A model generated the notes under the pieces. That model did not search any database and was not told the DNA's origin. It worked only from the letters and a program-made list of their open reading frames with translations. Made by a program: the position numbers and the translations under genes. Positions 10,394 through 64,000 of a stretch of 64,000 nt of DNA are shown piece after piece. This DNA comes from Minisyncoccota bacterium (lineage in GTDB: Bacteria > Patescibacteriota > Microgenomatia > PFEM01 > JAFGMK01), in assembly GCA_016927565.1 (NCBI GenBank), contig JAFGMK010000018.1, positions 13,119 through 77,118 of the forward strand, given 5' to 3'. Within the stretch, counting starts at the first letter, position 1; the number at the start of each line of letters is the position of its first letter.

Positions 10394-11752
10394 ATGAACA
10401 AAGAAATTCTTTGGCAAACTGTTATTGAAACCTTAAAAATTAATCTCTCTCCAGCTAACTTTTCCACCTGGTTTCCCCAAACCTTTATCCTGAAAATTAA
10501 AAAAGTAAATAATCAACATCAAATTGTGGAAATCGCCTGTCCGTCAACCTTTGTTAAAAACACTATCGAAGATCGTTATTTTGGTCAGATCAAAGAAATT
10601 ATCGATTCCGCCACCGGCCAGAAGTCAAACCTTATTTTCTCCATCAAGCAAGCTGACCAAACCAAAACAACCGCTAATCCGCCCCTTTTCCAATCAACTC
10701 CCGCACCGGTATCAACAGTTAATCATAATAACCAGGGTCTCAATCCCCGATTCGTATTTGAAAGTTTTATTGTCGGCAGCAGCAATAATTTTGCCCATGC
10801 CGCCGCCCGGGGAATTGTGACCAATCCCGGCAAAGCTTACAACCCCTTTTTTATTTATGGCGGAGTAGGCGTCGGCAAAACCCATTTAATGCAAGCTATC
10901 GGCCACGGGATCAGCCAACATTTTCCTGACCACAAAATTATTTATGCTTCCGCTGAAACTTTCACTAATGAACTGGTTGCCAGTCTGCAAAATAAGACAA
11001 CACCAAAATTTAAAAAAAAATATCGCGAGGTTGATGTTCTACTGATTGACGACATTCAATTTATCAGCGGCAAGGAATACTCCCAGGAAGAATTTTTCCA
11101 CACTTTCAACAGTCTTTATATGAACGGCCGTCAAATCGTTTTAACCGCTGACCGGCGGCCTGAAGAAATCTCCCGCCTGGAAGACCGGCTGGTTTCCCGT
11201 TTTCTGGGAGGTTTAACCGTTGACATCCAAGCTCCGGATTACGAGATGAGACTGGCCATCCTCAAGCAAAAATGCCGTCAAAAACAAAAAGAAGTCAGCG
11301 GGGAAGTTTTGGACTTCATTGCCACTCAAGTTGAATCCAATGCCCGGGAGCTGGAAGGAGTTCTTGTCCAAATCCTCACGCTGACCGAGACCAACCGAGC
11401 TGACCTTGATCTTGATTATGTTAGAAAATTCTTTGGTGTTAAAAAGAAACAGCGATCTTTAAAAATCACCCCGGAGAAAATCGTTTCCCTAATCGCAAAA
11501 GAGAGCGGTTTTAAAATCAAAGAAATAACCGGACTTAGCCGGAAGGCCCCTCTGGTTAAAGCCCGACACTTAGCTATGTATCTTTTAAGAAATGACCTGG
11601 AACTGCCTCTGACCAAGATCGGAGAAATATTCGGCGATCGTGACCATACAACGGTGATGCATGCCACGGATAAGATTCAACGCCTTTTTACTTCCAATCA
11701 AAATTTGAGAAGCGAGGTGGTGAATTTAAGAAATAATTTATTTAAGCAATAG
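10394..11752 (+). CDS. dnaA: Chromosomal replication initiator DnaA
   Basis: Walker A GGVGVGKTHLMQAIG and Walker B LLIDDIQF are present. The C-terminus carries the DNA-binding helix LTKIGEIFGDRDHTTVMHA. Confidence 0.95.
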   Translation: MNKEILWQTVIETLKINLSPANFSTWFPQTFILKIKKVNNQHQIVEIACPSTFVKNTIEDRYFGQIKEIIDSATGQKSNLIFSIKQADQTKTTANPPLFQSTPAPVSTVNHNNQGLNPRFVFESFIVGSSNNFAHAAARGIVTNPGKAYNPFFIYGGVGVGKTHLMQAIGHGISQHFPDHKIIYASAETFTNELVASLQNKTTPKFKKKYREVDVLLIDDIQFISGKEYSQEEFFHTFNSLYMNGRQIVLTADRRPEEISRLEDRLVSRFLGGLTVDIQAPDYEMRLAILKQKCRQKQKEVSGEVLDFIATQVESNARELEGVLVQILTLTETNRADLDLDYVRKFFGVKKKQRSLKITPEKIVSLIAKESGFKIKEITGLSRKAPLVKARHLAMYLLRNDLELPLTKIGEIFGDRDHTTVMHATDKIQRLFTSNQNLRSEVVNLRNNLFKQ

Positions 11753-12099
11753 AAAATCAATAAAATAAGTTTTGCACAATCTAAGCCGACTTATTCACAT
11801 AATTATCAACAAAAAAGCCGGGGTTTTACAGACGAAAAAGGGCCAAAACAAAGTTAGCCTATAGGGCAGAAAAGTTTTCTTTGTAAGTTAGTAGGATAAT
11901 TCTGGAGTTATCCACTTTTCAGCAGGCAAAACGCAGTCGCGATTTGCACTTTTACCCAAAGACTATTAGAACTACTACTATCTTTAGATAGTATTTAATT
12001 TTTAGTTGCTGATTATTAAAGACAATGGGGATAACTATCCAAAGATTTTCTTTCTGGAAAAACATAATTATTTAATTTACAATGAGAAAGGGTCTTTTT
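11753..12099 (+). promoter_or_regulatory. Putative oriC segment in the dnaA-dnaN spacer, with DnaA-box-like 9-mers and an AT-rich stretch
   Basis: TTATTCACA lies at 11791-11799 and TTATCCACT at 11908-11916. The AT-rich run tatttaatttttagttgctgattattaaag lies at about 11985-12020. The region upstream of dnaA also holds 1-mismatch boxes, TGTGGAAAA and TTATCCCCA. Confidence 0.5.
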
Positions 12100-13221
12100 A
12101 TGAAACTGACAGTTTTACAGGAAAATTTAAATAAAGGCTTGCTAGTCGCCGCCAGGACAGTCGCTTCCCGGCCTCAGTTACCGGTTTTAACCCATGTTTT
12201 ATTGGCTGCTGACAAGGGCCGATTGAGAATCGCCTCGACTAATTTGGAAACCGGGATTAACCTTTGGGTTGGGGCTAAAATTGAAGAAGAGGGTTCAATT
12301 ACTATTCCGGCCAGGATTCTTTCTGAATTTGTTTCTTCCCTTCCCTCTGATAAGGTTGTTCTTCAAACCAAAGAAAACCTTTTAAATTTGATCTCAGGGC
12401 GTTTTAGGGCCTCTTTTAATGGCCTGTCAGCCAGTGAGTTTCCCAAAATTGCTTCAACTCAAGGAAGGCCGATTTTAACGATTGAATCTGAAACACTGAC
12501 CAAAGCTGTCAGCCAGGTAGCTTTTGCAGCGGCCGCTGATGAAACCCGGCCGGCCTTAACCGGAGTTTTCTTTTTTCCCAAAGGGGAAAATCTGAATTTA
12601 GTGGCAACTGACGGATACCGCTTGAGTCTTAAAACGCTGACATCTTCTTTAACGCCTGAGGCAAAAGAGAAATTAACCAAAGGGATAGTGGTGCCCGCTC
12701 GGGCCTTTAGTGAGGTAGCTCGGATTGCCGGCGATGAGGAAGGCAAAGTTAAATTTTATTTTATGCCCGAAAGCAGTCAGTTGATTTTTATGATTAATCA
12801 GATTGAGGTGGTGACTCGTCTGATTGAGGCGGATTTTCCGGAATTTGAAAAAATAATTCCGGTTGAAGGCAAAATCAAGGCAGAGATCGAAACCCAGGAT
12901 TTTATTCGGGTGATTAAAATGGCGGCCATTTTTGCGCGGGAAAGCGCCAACATTATCCGTTTTTCTCTGGGTAAATCCGGTGTGGAGGTAAGTGCCAATA
13001 CCGCTCAGGTAGGCGAAAATAAAAGTTTGGTAGAGGTGAAGGTGGAAGGAGGAGAAGATAAAATTGCCTTTAATTCCCGCTATCTTTTGGATTTTTTAAG
13101 CGCAGTTAGGGACGAGTCTTTTACTTTGACCATTAATGGGCCATTGAGTCCGGGTGTTTTTAAACCCTTGAAAGACAACTCTTTTCTTCATGTGATTATG
13201 CCGGTGCGGGTGCAGGAGTAG
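12100..13221 (+). CDS. dnaN: DNA polymerase III beta sliding clamp
   Basis: MKLTVLQENLNKGLLVAARTV...LTHVLL is a typical DnaN N-terminus. The ATG at 12100 has an upstream AGAAAGGG Shine-Dalgarno-like sequence; the ORF track starts 18 nt earlier. Confidence 0.9.
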   Translation: MKLTVLQENLNKGLLVAARTVASRPQLPVLTHVLLAADKGRLRIASTNLETGINLWVGAKIEEEGSITIPARILSEFVSSLPSDKVVLQTKENLLNLISGRFRASFNGLSASEFPKIASTQGRPILTIESETLTKAVSQVAFAAAADETRPALTGVFFFPKGENLNLVATDGYRLSLKTLTSSLTPEAKEKLTKGIVVPARAFSEVARIAGDEEGKVKFYFMPESSQLIFMINQIEVVTRLIEADFPEFEKIIPVEGKIKAEIETQDFIRVIKMAAIFARESANIIRFSLGKSGVEVSANTAQVGENKSLVEVKVEGGEDKIAFNSRYLLDFLSAVRDESFTLTINGPLSPGVFKPLKDNSFLHVIMPVRVQE

Positions 13222-44955: not shown

Positions 44956-45343
44956 GGGGACGAAAGGTTTCGACGGAGCCGGCTCTTTAACAACTGCAAG
45001 CCGCCGTTGATTCATCGGCGTTAAACAGAATCAAAAAAATAAATGCTGAAGACGAAGATTTCAGCGGTTCTTATGCTTATGGCAATTTTGTCTACGCAAC
45101 CTTGCCTTGCTAAGACCTGTCTTTGAGATTCTTTCCTGATGGAGTCTTTAAAGGCATAAACCCAGTCAGGATGCCGTCTTAAAACAGTTGACTAGCGGTT
45201 TAAGATCAAGCCTAATTAGTCTTAGCCCCGCTTTCCGGTTGGCAGGATCAGGCTGGGGTGAAAAAAAATAAAAGCCGACTAAGCTTGTAGAAGTTGTTGA
45301 AAGTATGTTTCGGACCCCGGTTCAAATCCGGGCGTCTCCACCA
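44956..45343 (+). ncRNA. ssrA: tmRNA (ssrA)
   Basis: The 5' end GGGGACGAAAGGUUUCGACGG is paired with the 3' end GGUUCAAAUCCGGGCGUCUCCACCA. This gives a tRNA-Ala-like acceptor with the G3:U70 pair, a T-arm and CCA. It lies immediately downstream of smpB. Confidence 0.8.
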
Positions 45344-46209: not shown

Positions 46210-46437
46210 CAATAAAAAACATTGCCGGTATCCTTAAGATCACTAAAGGCAAAAGAATAAGAGGAGCGATAATCTTTGATTATTTAGCGGCAACAGCTTT
46301 GGTGAATGGAATCGGTTGGATCTGTATTAAAAATGTTGAGGGTTTTAAGTCGGTTTGGGTAAGATTAGGCGGGAAAACCATTCGCTGTGAGCGCTTGAAG
46401 CGGAGCAGGGGGGGGTTGGCTTATTGAGGAGGGTTGG

Positions 46438-46525
46438 CTGAGCGGTTAAAAGCGGTGGTCTTGAAAACCATTGCCCCCCGTGGGCACACAGGTTCGAATC
46501 CTGTACCCTCCGCCAGTTAGGAAAT
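46438..46525 (+). tRNA. tRNA-Ser(TGA)
   Basis: Acceptor GGAGGGU/ACCCUCC, anticodon loop CUUGAAA, a long variable arm and an encoded CCA. Confidence 0.8.
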
Positions 46526-47850
46526 GTCTTTGTTGACTCGCCCTCTGCGAGGGCTCGCCAGCCGATTTTAAGCGCGAATTGGAATTTTTTATTTTTGGCC
46601 CGAAGAGGCTGGCAAAAAGCGGGATTTTTTCATTTTTAATCATAGCGGGCTTCTTATATTTCTGAGTTTTGGGTTGGCCACTTGCGTATATCTTTGCGTT
46701 GTTCTTACATTTGAATCACGCAAAGCGTTCTTAAAAACTTTTTGTGCTGTTCTTGAGTTTCAGAAGCTTAATAAAGCTGAGAGTGAAGGTCAGGAAAACT
46801 GTACAACATTGAGAGGGATTTTTTGGCAGCTTGGTGTATTCTATTTCTTAGAAGGATAAATATTAATGGCTATAGGAAAAGAAATCAGTAGGAGAGATTT
46901 TTCTCCGAACTAGCGCTTTGGCTGCCGCAGACATGGCCGCAGCTGCTTGCGAGCCAAGGGCCGGATGGTTACCTGAACTCCCCTCTCCAGCAGAAAGACC
47001 AGAGGACGAAATCCTAGCCACTCATCCCCCGCCTAACAAAGAAGGAACAGGAAAGCCCTTTACTACCCGGAGAATTCTATGCTTACCCCTCTGTTGACTG
47101 CCAAGCCAGAATCTAAAGAGGATGACGGCGATCCACAAAAGCAAGCAAGAAAAATGATGTTGGAGGCTCTTTGGGGAAGGTTTAAGGCAAAGCTGTTAGA
47201 ACGCTTCCCAAAAAAACTCAATAGTTCCTCCGGAACACCTTGCTTTTCACACGGCTACCTAGCCCAATTATCAGCTCAATGGTAAAATAGAACCAGAAAA
47301 AGTGGTAAAAAAGTGAAGAAGACGTATTTATTAGCAGACAGCGCTCTAGCATATCTACTCCAAGTTGCCTTGAGCTTCCAGAAACCTTACAAGGAAAAAA
47401 TTGACTCTATAACTTACAGGGAAAGCTCTCTCATGTGTGTTAAAACAGAAGCCTCTTTAGCGACGCTCGCTTCAGTCGAAGGAAAAGATAAGTTATTTAC
47501 CTTAAAAACCATGCTCGGCTTCCAAACAGTAACAAGGCTTAAAGAACAAGCTAGAAATCTTAAACAGAAGGTTTGCGCTTCACAGGTTGTGGGAGGCTCA
47601 AGGAGCAACGTGGTAGCAATTGCATCACTCTTACACGACGCAGAACAACTTTCCAAGTACGCTGACAGTTTATCAAAGTATAAGTAAGAAAGATGAAAAC
47701 CTGGGTCTAAAAGAGTTGTTCGAAAAAATCAGCTAACATCGGTATATACCGAAACGTCAGTCTGAAAATTTCATCTTTTCCTGCCACAGCGCATAGTTGC
47801 CGGGCGTTATCGGAAATAACAAAAGCCCTGCTTAATGGTTATAAAAAACT

Positions 47851-48231
47851 ATGAGGATAAATCATATTACTATCTTAGTTTCTAACAGGCTAAAATCTGC
47901 TAAGTTTTATTCAGAGATTTTGGGACTGGAAATAGCTGAAAAGGGCAAGTCAAGATGGATAAAAATTGGTGACCAATATTTACACTTAGCGCAAGATTCT
48001 GGAAAACCGATTAAGGGCAGTTTCTATCATTTTTGTATTGAAGTAAAGAACGTTATTGATTTCGTCAAAAAATTGATTTCTAAAGGGGTTGACGTTTTTG
48101 ATCTCAACGATGAGCTAAATAAGGTAAATGTCAATCAAAACTTAGACAGAAAACACCGCCAATTTTTCATAAATGATCCGGACGGCAATATGATAGAGTT
48201 ATGCGACAAAAATAACGAGTACTTTAAATAA
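47851..48231 (+). CDS. VOC-family protein (glyoxalase/bleomycin-resistance fold)
   Basis: MRINHITILVSNRLKSAKFYSEILGLEI...HFCIEV...DPDGNMIEL is a typical VOC pattern. Confidence 0.75.
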   Translation: MRINHITILVSNRLKSAKFYSEILGLEIAEKGKSRWIKIGDQYLHLAQDSGKPIKGSFYHFCIEVKNVIDFVKKLISKGVDVFDLNDELNKVNVNQNLDRKHRQFFINDPDGNMIELCDKNNEYFK

Positions 48232-48336
48232 ACGTTTTTGTTACATCTAATAATACGGTATTTCCGGTTTGCTGCCCGGTTTGCGCTTGTTCTTTTATCT
48301 TGATATAATTTAGGTATTAGAAGTTAGTTTAAAAAC

Positions 48337-49098
48337 ATGCGCAAAATTAATCTGAAAAATCTTGTTTGGAAAGGGGGGAAATATTATGTTTCCTGCATTT
48401 CTTTGATTGCTGTTGCCTTGATTGCCGGGAGTGTCGTTTATTGGCGGCAGAAAACTCTATTTCAAGTTAAATGGGAAGGATTCCAGTTACAATTGGCTTC
48501 GTTGAATAGCCGATTAGAATCAGCCCAACAAGAAAATGAAGAACTTGCCAAAAAGTTGAGTATCAAATCGGAAGTTGCCACCGGCAGTAATCAAATCGAA
48601 GAGCCTGCCTCTGACAGCAAGTGGAATAAATTTATCTCTGATAGTTCTGGCCCTCTGGCTAAAACCTATTTATTGAGAGAGGATGGGTTATCATATTCAT
48701 CTGTCGAATCTGATATTTCTTTTTCAATTGAATATCCTGCCGATTGGACATGTAACAATGGCGTCTTTTCTTCAAAAGGTAAAAAGATCGCCGAATTTTC
48801 CCCGGGACTTGTTATTTTACAGCCTGGCCAGGGATGTTTTGAGGGTGGAATAATGGATCATGGCGGTGAGTTAATTTCTGAGACAACTGTTTCTATTGGT
48901 GGCCGCCAAGGGATACATCGAGTTGAGATTTGCGGTTATGAGGGCGGTTATCCGGATTACATTGGCACCTGGTACCCGAATATCTTCTGTTTAGAAGAAG
49001 GAGAAAAAGCTTTTAAGATGTCATTTTATGAACATGAATTGGGGGCTGGAGATAGAGCGCTTTTCGAGAAAATATTAGCAACGCTAAAATTTGAATAA
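48337..49098 (+). CDS. Hypothetical membrane-anchored protein: N-terminal TM, coiled coil, then a soluble domain
   Basis: A 253-aa ORF. The TM helix is YYVSCISLIAVALIAGSVVYW. Confidence 0.4.
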   Translation: MRKINLKNLVWKGGKYYVSCISLIAVALIAGSVVYWRQKTLFQVKWEGFQLQLASLNSRLESAQQENEELAKKLSIKSEVATGSNQIEEPASDSKWNKFISDSSGPLAKTYLLREDGLSYSSVESDISFSIEYPADWTCNNGVFSSKGKKIAEFSPGLVILQPGQGCFEGGIMDHGGELISETTVSIGGRQGIHRVEICGYEGGYPDYIGTWYPNIFCLEEGEKAFKMSFYEHELGAGDRALFEKILATLKFE

Positions 49099-49290
49099 AA
49101 AACCGGCCCGATATCACATCACACGGCATGCGAAGTTCGACGCTTAGCTCATGCTTCGCCCAACCCTCTGGATTGTTGTACAATACGATTATGGCGATCG
49201 ATAGGTTTTTAAGGCACACCGCCGGTCGGAAAATGTCTTTGTTGGCTTACTCTTTGAAGGGCTCGGCCGGTTATTTTCTATATACGGAAT

Positions 49291-49821
49291 ATGTCTGAAA
49301 CCGAAAAGATTTTACGATCAAAAATCAAGCCCAAGGAAAAACGGACTTTGCTCGTGGAGGCGGTTGTCACAGGCAAAATTCCGATAAAGGAATTTATGAC
49401 ATTTTTTAAGTCGGCCAAGGATAAGGACAAAGGTTCTTGCGCTGATATAATGAAGCATGTTTCAGTCCGGAAACCGGGGCTTCTTGCTCCTTACATTGAA
49501 ACGCTGATTGAATATGTTAATTTTCCCTTGCCTAGAGTGAAATGGGGTGTGCCGGAAGCTATCGGCAATCTGGCCAAGGATTATCCCGACAAGGTTGCTG
49601 AAGCCATGCCGAATTTGATCAAAAATACGACTGATGACAAAACAAACACGACGGTTATCAAATGGTGCTCGGCTTACGCTTTGACTGAAATTGCCAAGCA
49701 TAATCGAAAGACGAGAATTCAGCTTTTGCCGATTTTTGAAAAGATCATCAAAAAAGAGCAAAACAACGGCGTGAAGAATGTTTATATTAAAGCGCTCAAA
49801 GTAATTAAAAAAGAAAAATAA
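49291..49821 (+). CDS. Hypothetical cytoplasmic protein, helical-repeat-like
   Basis: A 176-aa ORF in an AT-rich islet. No diagnostic motif was recognised. Confidence 0.4.
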   Translation: MSETEKILRSKIKPKEKRTLLVEAVVTGKIPIKEFMTFFKSAKDKDKGSCADIMKHVSVRKPGLLAPYIETLIEYVNFPLPRVKWGVPEAIGNLAKDYPDKVAEAMPNLIKNTTDDKTNTTVIKWCSAYALTEIAKHNRKTRIQLLPIFEKIIKKEQNNGVKNVYIKALKVIKKEK

Positions 49822-49823
49822 CT

Positions 49824-50171
49824 ATGGACAAAAAAGTAAAACAATACATAGACAAGCAAAAATCACCGCAAAAAGAAATTATTATGGCCGTCCGAAAAAT
49901 ATTTTTCAAAACCTTAAAAAATTGTGAGGAAAAATATGGCTGGGGAGTAATCGTCTTGTGCAGGGGCAAATTTTATATTGCGGCCATGAAAAACAGGGTG
50001 CATGTCGGTTTTTCTATCATTGGTTTAGATAAGGAAGAGATTAAATTTTTGGAAGGGGGAGGTAAAACCATGAGACATATTAAAATTCCGGATCTAGTCA
50101 GTATTGACGAAGTAGAATTGAAAAAATTAATTGAATTGGTCAATAAAAAGGCCAAGTGTGTTAAGTGTTAG
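49824..50171 (+). CDS. DUF1801 (YdhG/YdeI-like) family protein
   Basis: The length and the pattern ...GWGVIVLCRGKFYIAAMKNRVHVGF... resemble DUF1801 as I remember it. Confidence 0.45.
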   Translation: MDKKVKQYIDKQKSPQKEIIMAVRKIFFKTLKNCEEKYGWGVIVLCRGKFYIAAMKNRVHVGFSIIGLDKEEIKFLEGGGKTMRHIKIPDLVSIDEVELKKLIELVNKKAKCVKC

Positions 50172-50196
50172 AGTCATTATCAATATAGTTAAAAAT

Positions 50197-50727
50197 ATGA
50201 ATAATCAAAATCAATCCTTCAACAATGTTCCCTCCGACGCTGAGGTTGTGGCGGGCAAGCAGGATAAGGAATGCTGTCCCAGATTTGACCCTGCGCCTTG
50301 GGACGGAAAAGTTTTAGAGTGGAATAATAAAAAATTTATCAAGGGCAGGGTGTTTACCTTGTTTTATATGCCGATAAATTTTGGTTCAGTTATGAAAAGA
50401 CTTGATGCAATAGTACGAAAAGCTGGAGCGAAATTTGAAGACAACATGGGACTTTCTGACCATACTTCCAAATGGAATATGGATATTTACCTGGCGGTTG
50501 ATAAAGAAATCCCCGGTATTGAAAACACTACACTTTCGGGGAAATTTTACACCAAAGTTTATGAGGGTGATTTTAAGGAAACCGGTAAATGGTGCAAGGA
50601 TTTTGAAAGTGTCGTTAAGGGCAGGGGAAAGAGTGTTGAGAAATGGTATATGTGGTACACCACTTGTCCCAAATGCGCCAAGAAATACGGCAGGAATTAC
50701 GTAGTGATTATCGGAAAGATAGGTTAA
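50197..50727 (+). CDS. Hypothetical protein
   Basis: The ORF from MNNQNQ onward ends in a C-terminal CPKC motif. It lies in the AT-rich islet. Confidence 0.4.
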   Translation: MNNQNQSFNNVPSDAEVVAGKQDKECCPRFDPAPWDGKVLEWNNKKFIKGRVFTLFYMPINFGSVMKRLDAIVRKAGAKFEDNMGLSDHTSKWNMDIYLAVDKEIPGIENTTLSGKFYTKVYEGDFKETGKWCKDFESVVKGRGKSVEKWYMWYTTCPKCAKKYGRNYVVIIGKIG

Positions 50728-50912
50728 GAAGAATTTGCCGCCAAATCTAGCGAATCTTAAAGTTTTGCTGAATGCGGAATAAAAACTTGCTTGGCCGAAA
50801 GATCGCTTCTTTTGCTTGGCCGGGACTGTGATGGGCAAGTGTGGATGGACGGAAGGTAAGATGAGAAATTCCGCCCACTGGGTAAATCAGTTCGACAAGT
50901 TCAGGACAGTTT

Positions 50913-51581
50913 TTGGGCGAAATCAATCCTGATTTTTTTGAAAGCAACTCTCTACTTATGATGTTCTCCAATTCCCTCTTGTCTTTTCAGAAGGATTTGG
51001 CTATGATTGAAGGAAAGGAGGAAAGGATGTCAGCGCCTCGTAAAGCTCCAGTAAAACCCTTAGAAGAGGAAGAAGCCAATTCAGAAAAGGTTTCAAGAAT
51101 TAAGGAATTGCTTGCCTGGGAAGCTCCGGCCAGGCCTTTTAAAAAGCGAAGCAAGGAGTTTTTTTCTACTGTCAGCGCCATTGCTTTTTTGGTGATGGTG
51201 ATTTTAGTTTTTTTGAAAGAATGGTTTTTAATTATAGCGATTATCGCCTTTTCTTTTTTGATCTATGTTTTGTCGACTATTCCGCCTCAGAAAGTAAAGC
51301 ATAAAATCACCAACCGGGGAATTACCACTAATGATAAAGAATATTTCTGGGAAGAGTTGGGCAATTTTTGGTTTACTCAGCAGTTAGATGAGACGATTTT
51401 GAATATTAAAATGCCTTTTCGATATCCCGGGCGGCTAATGATGCTTCTGGGAAATCAAAAAGAGGCCAAAGTTAAGAAAGTCTTAAGCCGCTTTTTAAGC
51501 CTGGAAAAAGTTTCGCCAACCTGGATTGAGAAAGCCGGAAAATGGTTAGCCGAAAAAGTTCCTCTTGAAGGATCTTCCTAG
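50913..51581 (+). CDS. Hypothetical membrane protein
   Basis: A 222-aa ORF with two central TM helices (IAFLVMVILVFL and IIAIIAFSFLIYVL). The true start may be an internal ATG. Confidence 0.35.
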   Translation: MGEINPDFFESNSLLMMFSNSLLSFQKDLAMIEGKEERMSAPRKAPVKPLEEEEANSEKVSRIKELLAWEAPARPFKKRSKEFFSTVSAIAFLVMVILVFLKEWFLIIAIIAFSFLIYVLSTIPPQKVKHKITNRGITTNDKEYFWEELGNFWFTQQLDETILNIKMPFRYPGRLMMLLGNQKEAKVKKVLSRFLSLEKVSPTWIEKAGKWLAEKVPLEGSS

Positions 51582-51623
51582 CTTCAAATCGGCACTATTC
51601 CATGATAAAATAAGCCCTAACAA

Positions 51624-51696
51624 GCGCTCGTAGTTCAATGGATAGAACACTTGATTGCGGATCAAGCGGTTGGAGGTTCGAGTCCTCCCGGGCGCA
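51624..51696 (+). tRNA. tRNA-Arg(GCG), an unusual anticodon
   Basis: Acceptor GCGCUCG/CGGGCGC with one G-U pair, D-stem GUUC/GAAC, anticodon stem CUUGA/UCAAG and loop UUGCGGA, T-loop UUCGAGU, discriminator A. Confidence 0.7.
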
Positions 51697-51915
51697 CCCC
51701 GCCAAGCGGGGTCGCTCGTGGAGGCGAGAACCTCCACCAGGGAAATTTTTGATTAGGAAGACTTAAGCAGTTCGTTAAAATGAGGAGGTTTTGAGGAATT
51801 GGGAAGACAGGCGGATTTTGTGTTAGATGCTTGGTGCAAACTGGATTGGAGAAAAAGACTGGGGAATGTTGAATAGTTTGCCTGTGGGAATAGGAATAGA
51901 TTTCCTGTAGGCAGA

Positions 51916-57951: not shown

Positions 57952-58027
57952 TCCCCGGTAGCTCAATTGGCAGAGCGTTCGCCTGTTAAGCGAAGGGTTA
58001 CTGGTTCGAGTCCAGTCCGGGGAGCCA
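57952..58027 (+). tRNA. tRNA-Asn(GTT); integration site of the downstream element
   Basis: Acceptor UCCCCGG/CCGGGGA and anticodon loop CUGUUAA. The T-arm ACUGGUUCGAGUCCAGU is identical to E. coli tRNA-Asn. A CCA is encoded. Confidence 0.85.
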
Positions 58028-59497
58028 GTCCCTACTTACTCTAACTTTTCTCGAGTTAAGTAGTTTTTTGAAGAGTGGCGTATAGGCAACTTTCGCCACT
58101 TTTTTGTCTTTAATATCAAACCTCTCAAAGAAGATAGCTAAGTAGTGTCTTTTGGCTTCAAAGCTAGCGTCACAATAAACCTCATAGATGTTGTTGGTGA
58201 GCTTTAATACTTCTTCTATAACATCAACGTCAAAGCCTCTTTGGTTTTCAATAGTGGCAATATCATTCTCTAAGTTTTGAATCTGGAAGTTAAGGTCCTG
58301 GTGTTTGCGTTTGAAAGATTCTTTGTCGATAGTCTTGTCTAAAAGATTATCCTCTAAGATATTGCGCTTATCTTCTAGCTTTTTAATGGCATTGCGTACA
58401 CCTTGAATTTCGCTATCTCTTGACTCTCTAGACTGTTTAACTAGGCTTTTAGCCTTGTCTAAGACAGCTTGTATAAACTCTTCTGATAACTGTATCTTCT
58501 TAAATTCTTTAGCTACAGCTTTTTCAAGCTCATCTAGGGGGATGTAGTGGCTACAGCCATTTCTAGCGCTTCCATGATAATAGGCCTTGTTTTTAGCATG
58601 AACACCATCTCCATACAATCGAGCGTCACATTCTTGGCAGTAAGCAAAGCCATTCAAGAGCCACTTATACTTTCTTCTTCTGCAAGCATTGTGGTTGTTG
58701 CGAGCCATTATCTTTTGACAAGTCTCGAATATTTCTGGTGTAGTTAAACTCTTATGGTTTCCTTTATGGAGCTTCCCGTTGTATCTCATCCATTTAACAT
58801 AAAAAGGATTTTTAAGAATCTCATAAACAATACTGCGGTACATTTTTTTACCAGTTTTACTACGTAGTTTTTTATCATTAAGATAATCGACCATTTCATC
58901 GACTGAATAGTTACCAGTAGAGTAGAGCCTAAATAACTCACTTATGAGGAAACTTTTTTCTTTGTCTACTTTTATGACACGGTTGGGTTTGTCTTCTGAG
59001 CCTAGATTGACATTTTTATAGCCTAAAGGTGCCCAACCTGGCCAATTGCCGTCTTGAATTTTCTTTTCTAAACTTTTTTTAACCTTGCGACCAGTTAAAC
59101 GACTATAGAAAGCATTAATACTAGCTAACATTCCATCCATAAGCTTACCTTCAGCAGAATCATCAATCATTGGTTGGCTTATGGCTATTAGTTGAGTGTT
59201 GCAGTCTTTAAGAACATGTTTGATTTTGTAGTGGTCAAACTCATTTCGAGCTATTCTGTCTGTATCGATAACCAAGGCCACGTCTATAGTCTCTTCTTGG
59301 CATTGGATAATCATATCTTCCAAACCTTCTCGGCCAACTGTCTTGGTGCCAGTTTTGCCACCATCTTTGAATACACCAACTACTTGATAGTTGTTTTTCT
59401 TAGCCCATTCAGCACACTTTTCCTTTTGAACATCAAGAGATAAACCGCCTACTTGGCCTGGGTCTGACACTCTGGAATAGATAACTGCTTTTTTCAT
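57998..59497 (-). CDS. Large serine recombinase (integrase)
   Basis: The N-terminal resolvase catalytic domain AVIYSRVSDPGQ...GKTGTKTVGREGLEDMI is followed by a recombinase domain and a zinc ribbon CQECDARLYGDG...CSHY. The last about 10 codons read through the tRNA-Asn 3' end. Confidence 0.85.
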   Translation of the reverse strand: MKKAVIYSRVSDPGQVGGLSLDVQKEKCAEWAKKNNYQVVGVFKDGGKTGTKTVGREGLEDMIIQCQEETIDVALVIDTDRIARNEFDHYKIKHVLKDCNTQLIAISQPMIDDSAEGKLMDGMLASINAFYSRLTGRKVKKSLEKKIQDGNWPGWAPLGYKNVNLGSEDKPNRVIKVDKEKSFLISELFRLYSTGNYSVDEMVDYLNDKKLRSKTGKKMYRSIVYEILKNPFYVKWMRYNGKLHKGNHKSLTTPEIFETCQKIMARNNHNACRRRKYKWLLNGFAYCQECDARLYGDGVHAKNKAYYHGSARNGCSHYIPLDELEKAVAKEFKKIQLSEEFIQAVLDKAKSLVKQSRESRDSEIQGVRNAIKKLEDKRNILEDNLLDKTIDKESFKRKHQDLNFQIQNLENDIATIENQRGFDVDVIEEVLKLTNNIYEVYCDASFEAKRHYLAIFFERFDIKDKKVAKVAYTPLFKKLLNSRKVRVSRDWLPGLDSNQ

Positions 59498-59679
59498 TTT
59501 ATTTTCTCTCTAGAAAATCTATCGCCCTTTATTGAAATTAGTTTGAATTTATTTCTTTTTGAATAACCACGTACTATTTTTTCTTGGGTTTCAGCCTGGG
59601 ATTTTTGAGTAAATTGTTTTGTGCTAGAAACACGGTTATAAAGTGCTGTTTTTTGCATTTTTATGACTCCTTTCTTCAA
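59494..59679 (-). pseudogene. Remnant encoding a resolvase N-terminus-like peptide (KTALYNRVSSTKQ...), directly upstream of the intact recombinase
   Basis: The 61-aa ORF has the pattern A(L/V)xYxRVSxxxQ, which aligns with the first about 55 aa of the neighbouring recombinase and then stops. Confidence 0.35.
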
Positions 59680-60015
59680 ATCCTTTAACTCTATTTAATA
59701 TGTTGTTCATTACGGTATCTTCAGGAGATAAAGAATTATCTCTAATAATATGCGCTTTTGATTCAACAACCTGTTTAACACGCTTCCAGGCAGGGTATAT
59801 GCCATGAACAAAACGAAAACCAACTTCAGATAACCTAACTTCAGCTAGTTTTTGTGCCATCAATTCGAGCCAGTTGTTATTATCTTTGAGCATATTTATT
59901 GAATATTCTTTAACATTACAATATACACATTGTACTACATAAATAATATTTAGTCAACAATATACACATAGCACACAAATTGCATTTATAACATAAATGA
60001 GTTACAATTGGAGCC

Positions 60016-60243
60016 ATGCAAGTAGAGTATAAATACACTGTAGAAGATATTGCCGAAATGCTTACCGTTAGTACAGAAACGGTTAGGCGTTGGTGTCGTA
60101 ACAAACAAATAAATCACATTAAGTTGCCAGGGAGGAAAGGTGGATTTAGATTTTCCAAAAATGATATTGTCGATTTTGTCGCCAAGCTTAATAGCAATCC
60201 TTATGATAAGGGGGGTACCCAGGGTTCAGAAAATTCAACTTAA
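60016..60243 (+). CDS. Helix-turn-helix DNA-binding protein (excisionase or regulator-like)
   Basis: YTVEDIAEMLTVSTETVRRWCRNKQINHIKLPG is an HTH signature. It faces the recombinase across a promoter region that contains repeats. Confidence 0.55.
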   Translation: MQVEYKYTVEDIAEMLTVSTETVRRWCRNKQINHIKLPGRKGGFRFSKNDIVDFVAKLNSNPYDKGGTQGSENST

Positions 60244-60480
60244 AAACTGGATGGGTATCTCTCAATAAATATTGCCTTTCTCCTTATATCCCCCCTTTTG
60301 ATAGTGTTTAACGTAAGCTGGGTTGAGTGAACCTGTTCTCAATTCCCTCATCTATGAGGCAACTCTTGTCTTTAGCCTTAAAATCAAGACTTTGACTCTT
60401 CTTTTAATAGACTCATTTATGAGTGAAGTCCCGCATATATTGCGGTTAAGCCTAAACTTATTAATTAGAAAACTAAGCGT

Positions 60481-61128
60481 TTAGGTTGTTCTTTTGTCTT
60501 CAGACTTTATTTCAACAACTTCACACATTGCATGCAATCGACTTACTAACCTATCGCCAATCAGACTTGCCAACTTTGTTTCTCCAAAGTTTGTAGTAAT
60601 AATGGTTTGCTTTACCCTGTTGTAGCGACCATCGATAATCAGATATAGGATTGAATTGGTCCAATCGCTTGTCTTTTCAGCGCCAATATCATCTAGTACT
60701 AATAACTCCACATCAACAATATTTTGTATAAAGAGCATGTTTTTGTCGTTTTCTCCATCAAAATTTGTTTGCATAGTAGTTAAAAGCTCGACAAGGTTGA
60801 CGTAAGCAATATCGCTTTCTTCATCGTTCCTTAGGCGTTCTTGTAGGGTCCATGCCGCTAGATGACTTTTACCCACTCCCGCATCTCCGAATAGATAGAG
60901 GCCACTTTCAGTGTCTTTCTTGGCAATTAAATTAGCCTGTTTCCAGGCCTGGACATTTCCAGTCTCAGCTTTAAATGGTTTATCGAGAAATAGTGGTGGA
61001 ATACCAGCGTCCCCAATTATTGAGTAATCAGAATCGTAATAACTATATTTACTTTTTTCTGAATATAGTCTTTTAGGTACGATACTTGCTAGGTTTTGGG
61101 AGATTCCTGTTTTCATAAATTTTTTCAC
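60481..61128 (-). CDS. IstB/DnaC-like AAA+ ATPase (helicase-loader-like)
   Basis: Walker A LYLFGDAGVGKSHLA and Walker B LLVLDDIGAEK are present, as is sensor TIITTN. Confidence 0.75.
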   Translation of the reverse strand: MKKFMKTGISQNLASIVPKRLYSEKSKYSYYDSDYSIIGDAGIPPLFLDKPFKAETGNVQAWKQANLIAKKDTESGLYLFGDAGVGKSHLAAWTLQERLRNDEESDIAYVNLVELLTTMQTNFDGENDKNMLFIQNIVDVELLVLDDIGAEKTSDWTNSILYLIIDGRYNRVKQTIITTNFGETKLASLIGDRLVSRLHAMCEVVEIKSEDKRTT

Positions 61129-61618
61129 CTCCTTTACTTTTTTTATTTTTATAACTTTGTATATATTTATTATTTGTAGATACTTTTATTTGTTTTTCTT
61201 TCTCTTTGTATGTTCCAGTTTCTGGATTAGTGACTGTTCCAATTTTTGGACCAGTACTATTCCAACTATTGATAAAGTAGTTATCCAATTCTTGATATAA
61301 AAAGTCGGATAGTCGATAATAAATCATTGCCCTGGAACCTTTTTTGACCTTAACTATTAAATTTTCTTCATCATCAAACCTTTCAATATAGCCATTATCA
61401 ATTAGCCAGTTTATTGCGGGCGAAATTGTAGCTTTAACGTACTTAGTTTTCTTTTCAATGAAGCCATACCTGATAAAATCTTTTTCTTTTTGAAAGCCAA
61501 GTGTTTGCCTGAATATTAAAAGAAGAATCTTAAATGTAGAGTTGGGAAACATTGACTGATTGTCCGCAAGCCAGTTATATGACGCTAGCTGGAAAAGAGG
61601 GTCTTTGCGTCTTTTCAT
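61073..61618 (-). CDS. Replication-initiation/replisome-organiser-like protein (winged helix; DnaD-like N-terminus)
   Basis: Its position directly upstream of the DnaC-like ATPase gives the typical phage or plasmid replication-module arrangement. The sequence is weakly diagnostic. Confidence 0.35.
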   Translation of the reverse strand: MKRRKDPLFQLASYNWLADNQSMFPNSTFKILLLIFRQTLGFQKEKDFIRYGFIEKKTKYVKATISPAINWLIDNGYIERFDDEENLIVKVKKGSRAMIYYRLSDFLYQELDNYFINSWNSTGPKIGTVTNPETGTYKEKEKQIKVSTNNKYIQSYKNKKSKGGEKIYENRNLPKPSKYRT

Positions 61619-61866
61619 AGCGTTTCCCTCCTTTCAGCAAAAAGCCTATCTTTTAGTTCGTTTAGGCAAGAAAACAATTTTTTGGGGTTTATTAAAGCAA
61701 CATCGTCCCAATACTCGTTTATGAGTTTTTGACAGAGCAGTGTGTTTTCAAATACAAACAATACTTTTTTAGGAGAAATTTTTTCTAGACAGAGGAGAGG
61801 TACATTACCAGTAGCTAGTAAATAGGTAGCGATATAAAGCTGGTGTGTTTTAAATACGTTTTTCAT
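61615..61866 (-). CDS. Small conserved hypothetical protein (DUF5659-like by memory)
   Basis: MKNVFKTHQLYIATYLLATG...KKVLFVFEN...EYWDD resembles a short family often seen on CPR mobile elements. Confidence 0.35.
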   Translation of the reverse strand: MKNVFKTHQLYIATYLLATGNVPLLCLEKISPKKVLFVFENTLLCQKLINEYWDDVALINPKKLFSCLNELKDRLFAERRETL

Positions 61867-62159
61867 TTCAATTTACCTCTCAATCTCAATATTGGTTGCT
61901 TATATTGAGCAAACAAAAAAGCAACCGTTTAATGCTAGTTAAACTAGCTTCAACGATTGCCACCCGAATTAAGAGGTCTTAGTTTCTAAAAGCCAATGCT
62001 TTGAAACCAAGGCAATGTTTTGTTGCAAATTGAGATAAGTATTGAGGTTTTCGTAACACTACAAAAACACTACTTTCTCTATGCTAAAACTAGATTATCA
62101 CATTTCAATTTTGCGGTCAATTGGTTATAATTGGAAGTAGGTTATAATGAGGTATATTT

Positions 62160-62357
62160 ATGATTAAAGAACCAAAGGTTAAAAAAATCTTAACCATAGG
62201 AGAAGCGTCAGAAATGCTTGGTGTGACTGTAACAACACTAAGAAAATGGGATAAAAATGGCCATTTTAAGGCCTTGAGAATTGGTACTCGCAAGGGCGTT
62301 GGTGATAGACGTTACCGATTAGAGGATATTAAGAAGTATTTGATAGCAGATAAATAG
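62160..62357 (+). CDS. MerR-family or excisionase-like HTH protein
   Basis: ILTIGEASEMLGVTVTTLRKWDKNGHFKALRIGTRKGVGDRRYRLEDIKKY. Confidence 0.6.
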   Translation: MIKEPKVKKILTIGEASEMLGVTVTTLRKWDKNGHFKALRIGTRKGVGDRRYRLEDIKKYLIADK

Positions 62358-62393
62358 AAAATTAAAGAAAATTAAAAGAGAATTTAGAAAATT

Positions 62394-63944
62394 ATGGCAA
62401 AAAACAAGAAACTTGAGCTAACTTGGTTCAATAAAGATAAAAGTCTTTTTTATGACCTTGAAGATAAAAAATATATTTGGGTAGATAAAAAAGACCCTCG
62501 TGTATCTGAACCTCGAATTCTTCTTGAAAAAGCTTCTTATGGAGATAAAAATTCCGAAAATATGCTTATTAAGGGAGACAACCTTTTGGCCTTAAAAGCG
62601 CTGGAATCAGATTTTAGAAATACATTTAAGCTGATATTTTTAGACCCGCCATACAATACTGGAAGTGCTTTTGAACAGTACAATGATGGTCTTGAACACT
62701 CAATATGGTTAGGAATGATGAAGACCAGATTAGAGTCACTTTATAAACTTTTAAGCACATCTGGCTCTCTTTGGATAACTGTTGATGACAATGAGTCTCA
62801 TTATTTGAAAGTGTTATGCGATGAAATATTTGGGAGAAAGAATTTTGTTGCGAATATTATTTGGCAAAAAAAATACACAAGAAGCAATGATGCAAAATGG
62901 TTTTCAGATAATCATGACCACATATTAATTTTTGCTAAGAATAAAGATTCCTGGAAATTAAATAAACTACCAAGAACTGAGGAAATGGATAAGAGATATA
63001 AGAACCCCGATAATGACCCAAGAGGTCCCTGGATGACTCAACCTCTTCATGCTAAGAGCGGAACAGACAAATCTTACTCCTTCACTTTTGAAAATAATAT
63101 TGTTTGGAAACCACCTTCTGGAACTTTCCCAAGGTACAGCAAGAATACTCTTGAAGAAGCAGACAGAGATGGGCGTATATGGTTTGGTAAAACTGGAAGT
63201 GCTGTCCCAAGGATGAAGAAATATTTAGCAGACATGAATAAAGGCGTTGTACCTATGACAATATGGACCTACGGAGAAGTGGGCAGTAATGATGATGCAA
63301 AAAGGGAAGTAAAACAAGTAAATCCAAAAGATGTTTTTTCTACTCCAAAACCAGAAAAATTAATGCACAGAATTATACAAATGGCTACGGCTGAGAATGA
63401 CTGGGTCTTGGATTCTTTTGCTGGCTCGGGTACTACAGGAGCTGTTGCACACAAAATGAACAGAAGATGGGTAATGATAGAAATGGAAAACCATGCTGAA
63501 ACTCACATCGTGCCTAGAATGAAAAGAATTGTAGACGGAAAAGATAAGAATAAGACTTCAAAATTAGTGAAATGGAGTAAAGGTGGAGGATTTTCATATT
63601 TACAACTTGGAGATAGTTTATTTGTACAAGATGATGACCTTAAATTAACCATATTGAATCAAAAGATGTATAACGGGCCTTTGATTCGTGCGGTCTTAAA
63701 AGTAGAAGGTTTTAAGCTTAAAAATCCTGACAATGGGATACATGGTATAGCTGGTAAAACAATTGCCCATGTCACTGAACAATATATTAGCCAACAATAT
63801 ATAGATGTTCTTATAGATGAAATTGGCTCTGCAGGAGATTTTATAATAGTTTATGCCAAGACAATTTCAAGCAGTCTGGAATTACCCGATAACGTTGAAG
63901 TTAGAAGAATTCCAGATGTTCTATTAAGGAGATTCAAAGTATGA
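62394..63944 (+). CDS. Beta-class N6-adenine/N4-cytosine DNA methyltransferase, probably the Type III R-M Mod subunit
   Basis: Motif IV IFLDPPYNTGSAF precedes motif I VLDSFAGSGTTGAV, which is the beta-class order. Its stop overlaps the ATG of the next ORF (ATGA). Confidence 0.65.
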   Translation: MAKNKKLELTWFNKDKSLFYDLEDKKYIWVDKKDPRVSEPRILLEKASYGDKNSENMLIKGDNLLALKALESDFRNTFKLIFLDPPYNTGSAFEQYNDGLEHSIWLGMMKTRLESLYKLLSTSGSLWITVDDNESHYLKVLCDEIFGRKNFVANIIWQKKYTRSNDAKWFSDNHDHILIFAKNKDSWKLNKLPRTEEMDKRYKNPDNDPRGPWMTQPLHAKSGTDKSYSFTFENNIVWKPPSGTFPRYSKNTLEEADRDGRIWFGKTGSAVPRMKKYLADMNKGVVPMTIWTYGEVGSNDDAKREVKQVNPKDVFSTPKPEKLMHRIIQMATAENDWVLDSFAGSGTTGAVAHKMNRRWVMIEMENHAETHIVPRMKRIVDGKDKNKTSKLVKWSKGGGFSYLQLGDSLFVQDDDLKLTILNQKMYNGPLIRAVLKVEGFKLKNPDNGIHGIAGKTIAHVTEQYISQQYIDVLIDEIGSAGDFIIVYAKTISSSLELPDNVEVRRIPDVLLRRFKV

Positions 63945-64000
63945 AAAAAATTGTTGAACAAATCACCAAAGAATTAAGTTTAAGAAAACCACAGGCATTA
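63942..64000 (+). CDS. 5' end of an ORF translationally coupled to the methyltransferase; possibly a Type III Res (helicase-like) subunit
   Basis: MKKIVEQITKELSLRKPQAL... runs to the window end. LRKPQ resembles the helicase Q/motif-I lead-in L-R-x-Y-Q. Only 19 codons are visible. Confidence 0.3.

Follow-up and report, generated by a model that had tools for sequence, protein, structure and literature searches.

A serine recombinase gene ending inside tRNA-Asn points to a split-gene integration module in a Patescibacteria defence island

Introduction

In phage Mx8 of Myxococcus xanthus, attP lies inside the int gene, and integration produces a recombinant gene with a new 3′ end (intP becomes intX); this change does not inactivate the enzyme but alters its properties, and has been described as a molecular switch (PMC6070905). 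The SSV-type integrases (SSV1, pTN3, pT26-2), tyrosine recombinases described as "so far restricted to archaea", carry attP in the integrase open reading frame (ORF), target tRNA genes, and are partitioned to the two ends of the element as two inactive halves; for tandem integration of such elements, restoration of an intact gene and formation of hybrid integrases were predicted, not observed (PMC7253208). Here we describe a stretch of 64,000 nucleotides (the window) from contig JAFGMK010000018.1 of a Minisyncoccota bacterium. Its last 6 kb are the tRNA-proximal (attL) end of an integrated element of more than 10 kb in a Candidatus Pacebacteria (Patescibacteria) chromosome, in which a large serine recombinase (LSR) gene ends inside a tRNA-Asn gene.

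Mx8 integrates at a tRNA gene. Serine integrases are prized in genome engineering for their strict direction, which is thought to need a separate recombination directionality factor (RDF) protein. To our knowledge, the characterised LSRs insert into intergenic sites or protein-coding genes, their attP is located elsewhere than in the int ORF and a separate RDF directs them, and integration that rewrites the C-terminus of an integrase is so far known only for tyrosine enzymes, those of phage Mx8 and the archaeal SSV-type elements. A limited full-text search of the literature returned no LSR with attP in its own ORF and no LSR element at a Patescibacteria tRNA-Asn. We conclude that the region is very probably an LSR-borne defence island at tRNA-Asn, and we put the probability that its element follows a split-gene mechanism, with attP inside the LSR gene, at roughly 0.7.

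Results

The recombinase gene and its left junction

We observed that the tRNA-Asn(GTT) gene, the integration target, is intact: it scores 69.5 bits with the Rfam tRNA model (gathering score 29), and all positions of its acceptor stem (TCCCCGG/CCGGGGA) are paired. The LSR gene overlaps it by 30 nt from the opposite strand. Its last 10 codons, TGG CTC CCC GGA CTG GAC TCG AAC CAG TAA (WLPGLDSNQ and a stop), correspond exactly to the T-arm, acceptor 3′ strand and CCA of the tRNA when these are read as the reverse complement. The protein matches the Pfam families Resolvase (PF00239, 9.7e-27, residues 4-152), Recombinase (PF07508, 1.1e-11) and Zn_ribbon_recom (PF13408, 2.6e-06), the PHROG integrase family phrog_95 (5.8e-87) and, in the PDB, the catalytic domain of TP901-1 (1.7e-10) and the C-terminal domain of A118 integrase (5.6e-4, residues 209-417). 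R9 and S11 (YSRVSD) are invariant or nearly so across 43-65 homologues. By these matches the enzyme is an LSR, with a resolvase-type catalytic domain bearing the Arg and nucleophilic Ser, a recombinase domain, and a zinc ribbon with a coiled-coil insertion. The initial annotation had proposed a serine recombinase, not a tyrosine integrase, that terminates in the tRNA 3′ end, together with a shift to AT-rich DNA directly after the tRNA, and both proposals hold. GC content drops from 0.450 (1-57951) to 0.351 (58028-64000), and is 0.343 for 10 kb of the element including the extension described below; 0 of 104 host segments of 6 kb had a value below 0.411.

The sequence was extended with Logan contig L001 (10,991 bp), which is 100% identical to the window over 7024 bp and runs about 4 kb further. 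This identical 11-kb contig comes from an independent run. It ends within a DUF91 gene, so that the right end of the element, already said in the initial annotation to lie outside the window, lies outside L001 as well. Exact-match scans of genome and metagenome contigs with L001 or the window-end sequence found nothing.

Alignment to the attL, attR and attP cores of five related loci (L040, L019, L070, L096 and L006) places the probable crossover of the window element within a GGGGAGC core (Table 1). This predicted core spans positions 68-72 of the acceptor-stem 3′ strand, the discriminator and C74, and the tRNA bases to its right (the remaining CCA) would be derived from the element. Next to the core, inside the LSR coding sequence, lies the P arm of the attL site. 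It carries the motif CTTACTCTAAC at 58035-58045, which the LSR strand reads as GTTAGAGTAAG, 11-21 nt from the core. The arm has homologues in L097, a full-length relative, where it corresponds to the left half of the attP palindrome (GTCAGAGTAAGG ... CCTTAATATAAC), and in the P arms of L099 and L006 (GTTAGTGTAAC). The end of the LSR inside the tRNA is probably the signature of an attP within the recombinase ORF and not an incidental overlap. On its own, the window displays the junction of tRNA and LSR, the protein domains, the cargo and the change in composition, and only the attL half of the integrated element is visible in it. The element is predicted to carry the detached tail of its recombinase gene at its right end, beyond the DNA read.

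Relatives carry attP inside the recombinase ORF

The tail was sought with a hidden Markov model (HMM) of the first tail type, built from full-length proteins only and run on six-frame translations of all loci. We observed detached tails on the LSR strand, upstream of tRNA-fused LSRs, in L019 (7.2e-11), L040 (7.6e-11) and L070 (3.4e-05), and weaker matches in L054, L078 and L037/L038. A phmmer search with the tail of P0173 found two detached copies in L006 (2.2e-05 and 6.5e-05). Five relatives are bounded at both ends: L040 (7,608 bp), L019 (7,135 bp), L070 (3,711 bp), L096 (10,919 bp) and L006 (~9.1 kb). Their detached tails measure 35-60 codons.

The sequence common to attL and attR in the bounded relatives is only GCTCC(CC), 5-7 bp long, and the T-arm is not repeated at attR. 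The core GCTCC is the reverse complement of the tRNA discriminator and acceptor 3′ strand. In L040, attL reads ..AAC TTG CTC CCC GGG AAG GAC TCG AAC.. (LSR body into tRNA) and attR reads ..GGA TGG CTC CCC AGT CCA AGA.. (host flank into tail). When body and tail are joined at the core, the frame continues as ..SNLLPSPRYN.., matching the full-length homologues (..NWLPSPK..), and an in-frame full-length LSR is likewise restored at the core for L019, L070 and L006. The detached tail of L040 sits exactly between the host adenylate kinase/ASCH genes and the genes of the element. For the window element, the initial annotation had counted on a downstream direct repeat of the tRNA 3′ end; scanning L001 with up to 3 mismatches recovered only the tRNA itself. 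A long-repeat test is unsuited to this family because the ends of the bounded relatives share only 5-7 bp. Judging from these junctions, the diagnostic mark of attR would instead be a detached, in-frame C-terminal piece of the recombinase beside the core.

Full-length genes contain an inverted repeat, GGTTATAAT-N31-ATTATAACC, centred on TGGCT[C]CCC and forming an imperfect palindrome of ~49 bp. The centre falls within the NWLP codons and not past the stop. This internal palindrome has the length and symmetry expected of an LSR attP: the relatives show a short imperfect palindrome with a central crossover and no long att identity, and the window a homologous P arm. The peptide ..KVII..NWLP..IIT.. 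would be conserved because its codons are the predicted binding site of the recombinase itself. An attP inside the ORF was found in L006, L019, L040, L070, L096 and the P0121/P0242 pair described below.

To place the split on the protein, we used an AlphaFold2 model of the full-length P0126. The split point lies at the end of the last beta strand (485-487), ahead of a low-confidence linker (490-502) and two helices (499-511 and 513-527) with predicted local distance difference test (pLDDT) values of ~60-75; long paired helices span 339-386 and 392-418. The position of the split point in this model suggests that the tail is an appendage, and that the truncated protein would keep every folded domain.

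Some full-length LSRs occur in a chromosomal setting. L096 can be accounted for as a tandem array, given a further detached tail at 543-689: after that tail come an element and an LSR body that continues in frame into the next element's tail, and this joined tail is 95% identical to the detached tail of L019. In L097 (5541-7142), the full-length LSR P0126 retains its internal attP intact and directly adjoins host GAPDH, RpiB and LOG genes, and its flank (to 12111) holds no tRNA or T-loop motif within 5 kb of the LSR. The idea that every full-length LSR represents an excised form was dropped, since L096 and L097 are chromosomal. L019 has three more, fossil tails of the second type (W..FRT) upstream, at 1044-1103, 1578-1664 and 3097-3156, each following a degraded ..CCTATCTAGCTC.. 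LSR-end remnant or a tRNA-end motif, which argues for serial integration and decay at one tRNA-Asn.

We also noted an ATG-started ORF of 72 aa in L040 (1073-1291) that begins in the host flank and runs in frame into the detached tail. Such an ORF could, in theory, allow the integrated element to produce the tail as a small protein of its own.

The clade of the window recombinase

In the window's own clade, one and the same LSR is on record in what its sequences indicate are both states. P0121 (501 aa, tRNA-fused, on the chromosomal contig L091) and P0242 (533 aa, on a 19.4-kb contig) share 493 identical residues and differ from the point just after ..DWLP onward, P0121 ending in GQDSNLRP and a stop and P0242 in LQDLLHNGYKSQLLEITSEDLRVFSEGMELDLFPKPSFIY and a stop. 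The window LSR is 88.5% identical to both, and they fall into its 90%-identity cluster. The LSR of L006, 73% identical to that of the window, is fused to tRNA-Asn, and detached tails of a third type lie at 2360-2479 and 824-946, each after (TG)GCTCCCC; L006 reads as a ~9.1-kb element with an older remnant beside it.

Cargo varies among close relatives at this site. L091 (LSR 89% identical) has the same host synteny as the window (DnaG .. RpoD, small ORF, tRNA-Asn) and carries an OLD-family nuclease and a UvrD helicase, Gabija-like. L092 (86%) carries a Type I restriction-modification (R-M) system with an SduA (Shedu) nuclease. L098 (84%) keeps the gene order of the window, LSR, small ORF, HTH_17, DnaC-like, 183 aa, DUF5659, MerR, and then a different N6/N4 methyltransferase with a large downstream ORF. 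The more distant L097 (67%) carries an Eco57I-type R-M system. Different cargo beside LSRs of 84-89% identity at the same site implies recent turnover and mobility. No capsid, terminase or tail domain was found in the bounded relatives, whose 3.7-10.9 kb would not accommodate a phage, and the family is best described as small integrative, probably replicative, carriers of defence genes. A separate observation concerns the cargo slot of L099 (922-4251), which encodes a 1109-aa protein whose N-terminal MerR/HTH_17 domain continues into a large region without annotation; in the other elements this slot holds a stand-alone MerR gene with defence genes behind it.

A recombinase family of Patescibacteria

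A database search gave 298 homologues of the window LSR, nearly all from metagenomes of Patescibacteria, also called the Candidate Phyla Radiation (CPR). We classified the C-termini of 121 proteins, the 120 best matches of the 298 and the window LSR. In 75 of them ..NWLP(G/R) is followed by (L/Q/E)DSN.. (antisense tRNA), or a stop comes no more than 3 residues after NWL. About 27 have a conserved tail of ~40 aa after NWLP (consensus xPxxIITxLEDFEYMAxLKExLxxIKxF), and about 11 have the second tail type (W..FRT..). The string W-L-P-G-x-D-S-N is the antisense of the CCA, discriminator, acceptor strand and T-loop GGTTCGA(A/G)TCC.

A family profile fetched 80 metagenomic loci with homologous LSRs (37-97% identity). 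ARAGORN placed a tRNA-Asn(GTT) on the opposite strand, overlapping the 3′ end of the ORF, in 25 of the 80. At more distant loci a tRNA-His, -Lys, -Glu or -Tyr gene overlaps the ORF end, and at one a tRNA-Gln lies ~70 nt past it. At several loci without an apparent tRNA, a tRNA-Asn is in fact present but split by a group I intron (Rfam RF00028; Table 1), and ARAGORN misses these genes because the intron interrupts them. LSR ORFs that read through the intron yield a spuriously "conserved" peptide (..QPSSYKNPSVTKRLGLSHH..). IMG/VR holds almost no relatives. A single-protein scan of this database found none, and a profile scan of its 2.9 million contigs found one above 30% identity (37%) and five at 21-25%; known phage and plasmid LSRs reach at most 29%.

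Some distant or unusual members are recorded here as side observations. In L032 (7810-11620) and L056 (2731-6412), distant LSRs lie directly downstream of a second, different LSR (578 and 548 aa). In L032 the first of the two LSRs runs out in an isolated 3′ piece of a tRNA (T-arm and acceptor, ~9460-9500) that lacks the tRNA body, and this 53-kb contig looks phage-like, with Rad52-like, RuvC, PD-(D/E)XK, LexA/S24-like and SAVED genes. The LSRs of L009 (P0133), L008 and L025 read ..NLLPALDSNH and then continue in non-tRNA, tail-resembling sequence (EAKILEFLRNF..); these may be hybrid att sites that captured a tRNA T-arm. A LOOT RNA (Rfam RF03000, 79.8 bits) lies at 122-233 of L026, ~2.5 kb upstream of a related LSR.

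Alternative explanations

The usual picture for tRNA-integrating elements is an attP with a long tRNA 3′ mimic downstream of a complete gene. On that account the window LSR would always end in ..WLPGLDSNQ and a stop, its overlap with the tRNA would be incidental, and integration would leave the protein unchanged. The LSRs of L008, L009 and L025 and the first LSR of L032 do precede only the 3′ part of a tRNA (T-arm and acceptor), which could be an attP with a tRNA mimic, and the attR of the window element lies beyond the DNA read. However, the five bounded relatives share only GCTCC(CC) between their ends and lack the T-arm at attR, P0121 and P0242 part company right after an identical DWLP, and the palindrome is centred in the NWLP codons and not beyond the stop; we therefore regard a conventional LSR island as very unlikely. 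The same unseen right end would leave room for a full temperate prophage, with structural and lysis genes beyond the 10 kb read and the R-M genes as phage morons. The match to phrog_95 and the pairing of DnaC-like and RepO-like genes, typical of phage replication, agree with this, as does the setting of the distant member L032 amid Rad52-like, RuvC, PD-(D/E)XK and LexA/S24-like genes. A prophage is nevertheless improbable given the small relatives free of capsid, terminase and tail domains, the lone IMG/VR contig with a relative above 30% identity, the distance of phage-database LSRs (at most 29%), and the lack of a structural gene in the 10 kb seen. At the tRNA-Asn of relatives, fossil tails and decayed LSR ends (L019 at 1044, 1578 and 3097; L006 at 824) indicate that decay at this site is common, so the element might be an immobile remnant, once mobile and now fixed, with a truncated and non-working recombinase. 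The LSR ORF is intact, though, and keeps all conserved residues including R9 and S11; the backbone genes are also intact, the independent run yielded an identical 11-kb contig, and relatives with 84-89% LSR identity hold different cargo at the same site, which implies recent mobility. We give this last account the smallest chance.

Several points weigh against the split-gene mechanism itself. The attR of the window element was not reached and lies beyond L001, more than 10 kb from the tRNA. A search of L001 for a second P-arm motif plus core found none, and the type-1, -2 and -3 tail HMMs found no tail there. The type-1 and -2 models were also blank within 10 kb upstream in L091, L092, L098 and L099, because the window clade uses the third tail type; the type-3 model was also blank in L091 and L092, and there as in L001 this is because the elements are longer than the available DNA. 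There are at least three tail types, and that of the window clade is poorly conserved, so the tail there could be mere read-through without function. In the P0126 model the tail is only moderately confident (pLDDT ~60-75). None of the 59 whole-contig loci is a circular contig (terminal direct repeats), and L097 fits neither the excised form nor a tandem array.

Element backbone, defence cargo and chromosomal context

The features of the region are listed in Table 1. Of the two ORFs next to the LSR, the small one (59494-59679) matched no family above the curated cut-off. The 85-aa ORF matched no Pfam, PHROG or PADLOC family; it has homologues at the equivalent position in L097 (49% identity) and L092, and L096 and L019 carry mutually homologous ORFs at that position. 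It is, speculatively, a candidate accessory or directionality factor. The IstB/DnaC-like ATPase and the winged-helix replication protein of the initial annotation were both recovered, the latter as a weak RepO-like assignment: its PF04492 match (6.5e-05, 23.8 bits) is under the 28.7 gathering cut-off, and six PHROG replication-initiator families match at 3e-06 to 3e-04, the best being "replication initiation O-like" (3e-06). The gene order with DUF5659 recurs in L098, and a MerR/HTH_17-type gene also precedes the differing defence cargo of L092, L097 and L098.

The predicted methyltransferase-Res coupling was confirmed. The Res ATG overlaps the mod stop (ATGA at 63941-63944), and the ORF after 63942, which we searched for a Type III Res as had been suggested, is completed in L001 as a 770-aa protein with the Pfam domains ResIII and RE_endonuc. 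With an N6/N4 beta-class Mod, a helicase-ATPase/endonuclease Res and the mod-res order, the pair is a true Type III R-M system in layout and domains. Further on, P0001 matches the PADLOC model PDLC04946 of PDC-S18 (4.5e-65) and Pfam PF01939 and PF18899 (DUF5655), and this DUF91/NucS-like plus DUF5655 protein would represent that candidate defence system. No virion structural gene was found by Pfam, PADLOC or PHROG in the 10 kb of window and L001, and no relaxase or type IV secretion system domain among the genes seen in the window, L001, L091, L092, L098 and L099. As a side observation, the DUF91/NucS-like plus DUF5655 protein is 80-92% identical between contigs assigned to differing CPR lineages, and in L003 (5239-6108) its gene follows a Type III res-mod pair with a ClpP-like protease in between. 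Together these suggest a mobile accessory module linked to Type III R-M.

The window is chromosomal. It holds dnaA (10394-11752) and dnaN (12082-13221) at the minimum of cumulative GC skew (~11-12 kb), so the chromosomal replication origin is probably inside the window, ~46 kb from the island. Two features of the host DNA are noted in passing. A transfer-messenger RNA (tmRNA) gene at 44956-45343 (Rfam 167.5 bits) has an unusual ARAGORN tag peptide, AEDEDFSGSYAYGNFVYATLPC and a stop, which may reflect a wrongly called frame or a genuine peculiarity of CPR bacteria. A second tract of low GC (0.38-0.41), at 47000-51600 between tRNA-Ser(TGA) (46428-46515) and tRNA-Arg(GCG) (51624-51698), contains mainly unannotated ORFs plus a glyoxalase and a "Bact_hydrolase" protein, with no recombinase seen; it could be an old island or ordinary variation.

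Table 1 Features of the element, its target and related tRNA genes. Positions are those of the window unless a locus is named.
Feature	Position	Strand	Evidence
tRNA-Asn(GTT), intact; integration target, attL junction	57952..58027	+	ARAGORN; Rfam RF00005
LSR, 499 aa, MBN1263452.1, integrated tail-less form	57998..59497	-	Pfam, PHROG, PDB
Predicted crossover core GGGGAGC (reverse complement GCTCCCC)	58019..58025	.	Alignment to relatives' cores
P arm of attL site, inside LSR coding sequence	58026..58050	.	Homology to relatives' P arms
Small ORF, 61 aa from TTG (54 aa in Logan contig call), overlaps LSR start by 4 nt; uncertain gene	59494..59679	-	
Conserved 85-aa ORF just upstream of LSR	59636..59893	-	Homologues at equivalent position
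HTH_17 (excisionase/AlpA-like) DNA-binding protein, 75 aa	60016..60243	+	PF12728 4.5e-12; PHROG "excisionase and transcriptional regulator" 5.2e-08
DnaC/IstB-like AAA+ helicase loader	60481..61128	-	PF01695 1.4e-12; PF00308 2.2e-10; phrog_50 "DnaC-like helicase loader" 5.8e-44
Putative replication initiator, RepO-like winged helix	61073..61618	-	Weak assignment
DUF5659 protein, first gene of replication operon	61615..61866	-	PF18903 7.4e-11
MerR/HTH_17 regulator preceding cargo	62160..62357	+	PF12728 5.6e-10; PF00376 4.3e-09
Type III R-M methyltransferase (Mod), N6_N4, 516 aa, MBN1263460.1	62394..63944	+	PF01555 9e-49; PADLOC MTase_III 2.6e-144
Start of Type III Res; complete gene 770 aa, to window-equivalent 66253	63941..64000	+	L001; PADLOC REase_III 4.1e-81
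372-aa ORF without family, after Res	window-equivalent 66260-67378		L001
DUF91/NucS-like PDC-S18 gene, MBN1263463.1 (P0001)	window-equivalent 67380-68249 (L001 10404-10991)		L001
tRNA-Asn with group I intron	L091 11520-11806; L026 4316-4514; L018 11962-12177		Rfam RF00028, 50-68 bits

Discussion

The junctions of the relatives suggest how the window element would integrate. In the free form, the LSR gene would be ~40 codons longer and would cross its own attP, a ~49-bp imperfect palindrome with a GCTCC centre. The attB site would consist of the last ~25 bp of tRNA-Asn (T-arm, acceptor 3′ strand, discriminator and CCA) and the downstream flank. Strand exchange in GCTCC would join the LSR body, through ..DWLP, to antisense tRNA, and would move the tail-coding piece to the far end of the element (attR). 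The tRNA would remain intact because the "TGGCTCC" of the element substitutes for its last nucleotides. The prophage-state LSR would then be a tail-less isoform, excision would restore the full-length gene and its frame, and full-length protein would be made only from the excised circle or a tandem junction. The element probably replicates after excision, and, while it is integrated, transcription converging from the tRNA gene may lower LSR expression.

Read from gene topology, only the full-length isoform would carry out integration and only the tail-less isoform excision, and the two may differ in activity. That the tail swap works as a directionality switch, the full-length protein being integration-competent and the tail-less one excision-competent, is a tentative suggestion that we consider doubtful. 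If true, direction would be set by the 3′ end of the gene, instead of or besides a separate RDF, and the family would offer natural pairs of "forward" and "reverse" LSR isoforms that target the universally conserved T-arm/acceptor sequence of tRNAs. A large natural family of LSRs whose integration rewrites their own C-terminus would be a new and simple route by which direction could be controlled. The elements also matter for their cargo: they appear to be widespread, small, integrative and probably replicative vehicles that move defence systems (Type III and Type I R-M, Gabija-like, Shedu and PDC-S18) among Patescibacteria, whose mobile DNA is poorly known. For annotation, a recombinase of these genomes that "ends inside a tRNA" is best taken as a split gene, and the detached tail, instead of a long att repeat, is the feature by which to locate the other end of the element.

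The domain plan of the window enzyme is that of the LSRs of A118/LI, TP901-1, phiC31, Bxb1 and SPbeta (resolvase, recombinase, and zinc ribbon with coiled-coil), and the attP of the family resembles theirs in being a palindrome of ~50 bp with a short non-palindromic centre. It differs from these characterised enzymes in sequence, with an identity of at most 29%. In architecture only, the elements resemble P4-like satellites and those of the phage-inducible chromosomal island (PICI) type: they are small (3.7 to more than 10 kb), with an integrase, regulators, a replication module and a variable defence slot. Unlike those satellites, they carry no recognised capsid-redirection or packaging genes, have no known helper phage and reside in a CPR host.

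The closest bacterial precedent is Mx8, in which attP also lies in the integrase coding sequence and integration also gives a new 3′ end. Mx8, however, uses a tyrosine recombinase and is a full-size proteobacterial phage, whereas here an LSR acts on a 5-7-bp core in small elements with defence genes. The tandem junction of L096 is the counterpart of the rebuilt gene predicted for SSV-type elements. Unlike the SSV-type integrases, which are split into two halves, the enzyme described here loses only a C-terminal appendage of 35-60 aa, and its catalytic and DNA-binding domains stay in one piece. It has neither the tyrosine recombinase fold nor the two inactive halves that define the SSV type; the working is similar, and the module is a member of neither the SSV nor the Mx8 family. 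In conclusion, by analogy with these systems, the window element appears to carry the serine-recombinase counterpart of the Mx8 and archaeal SSV-type integration modules.

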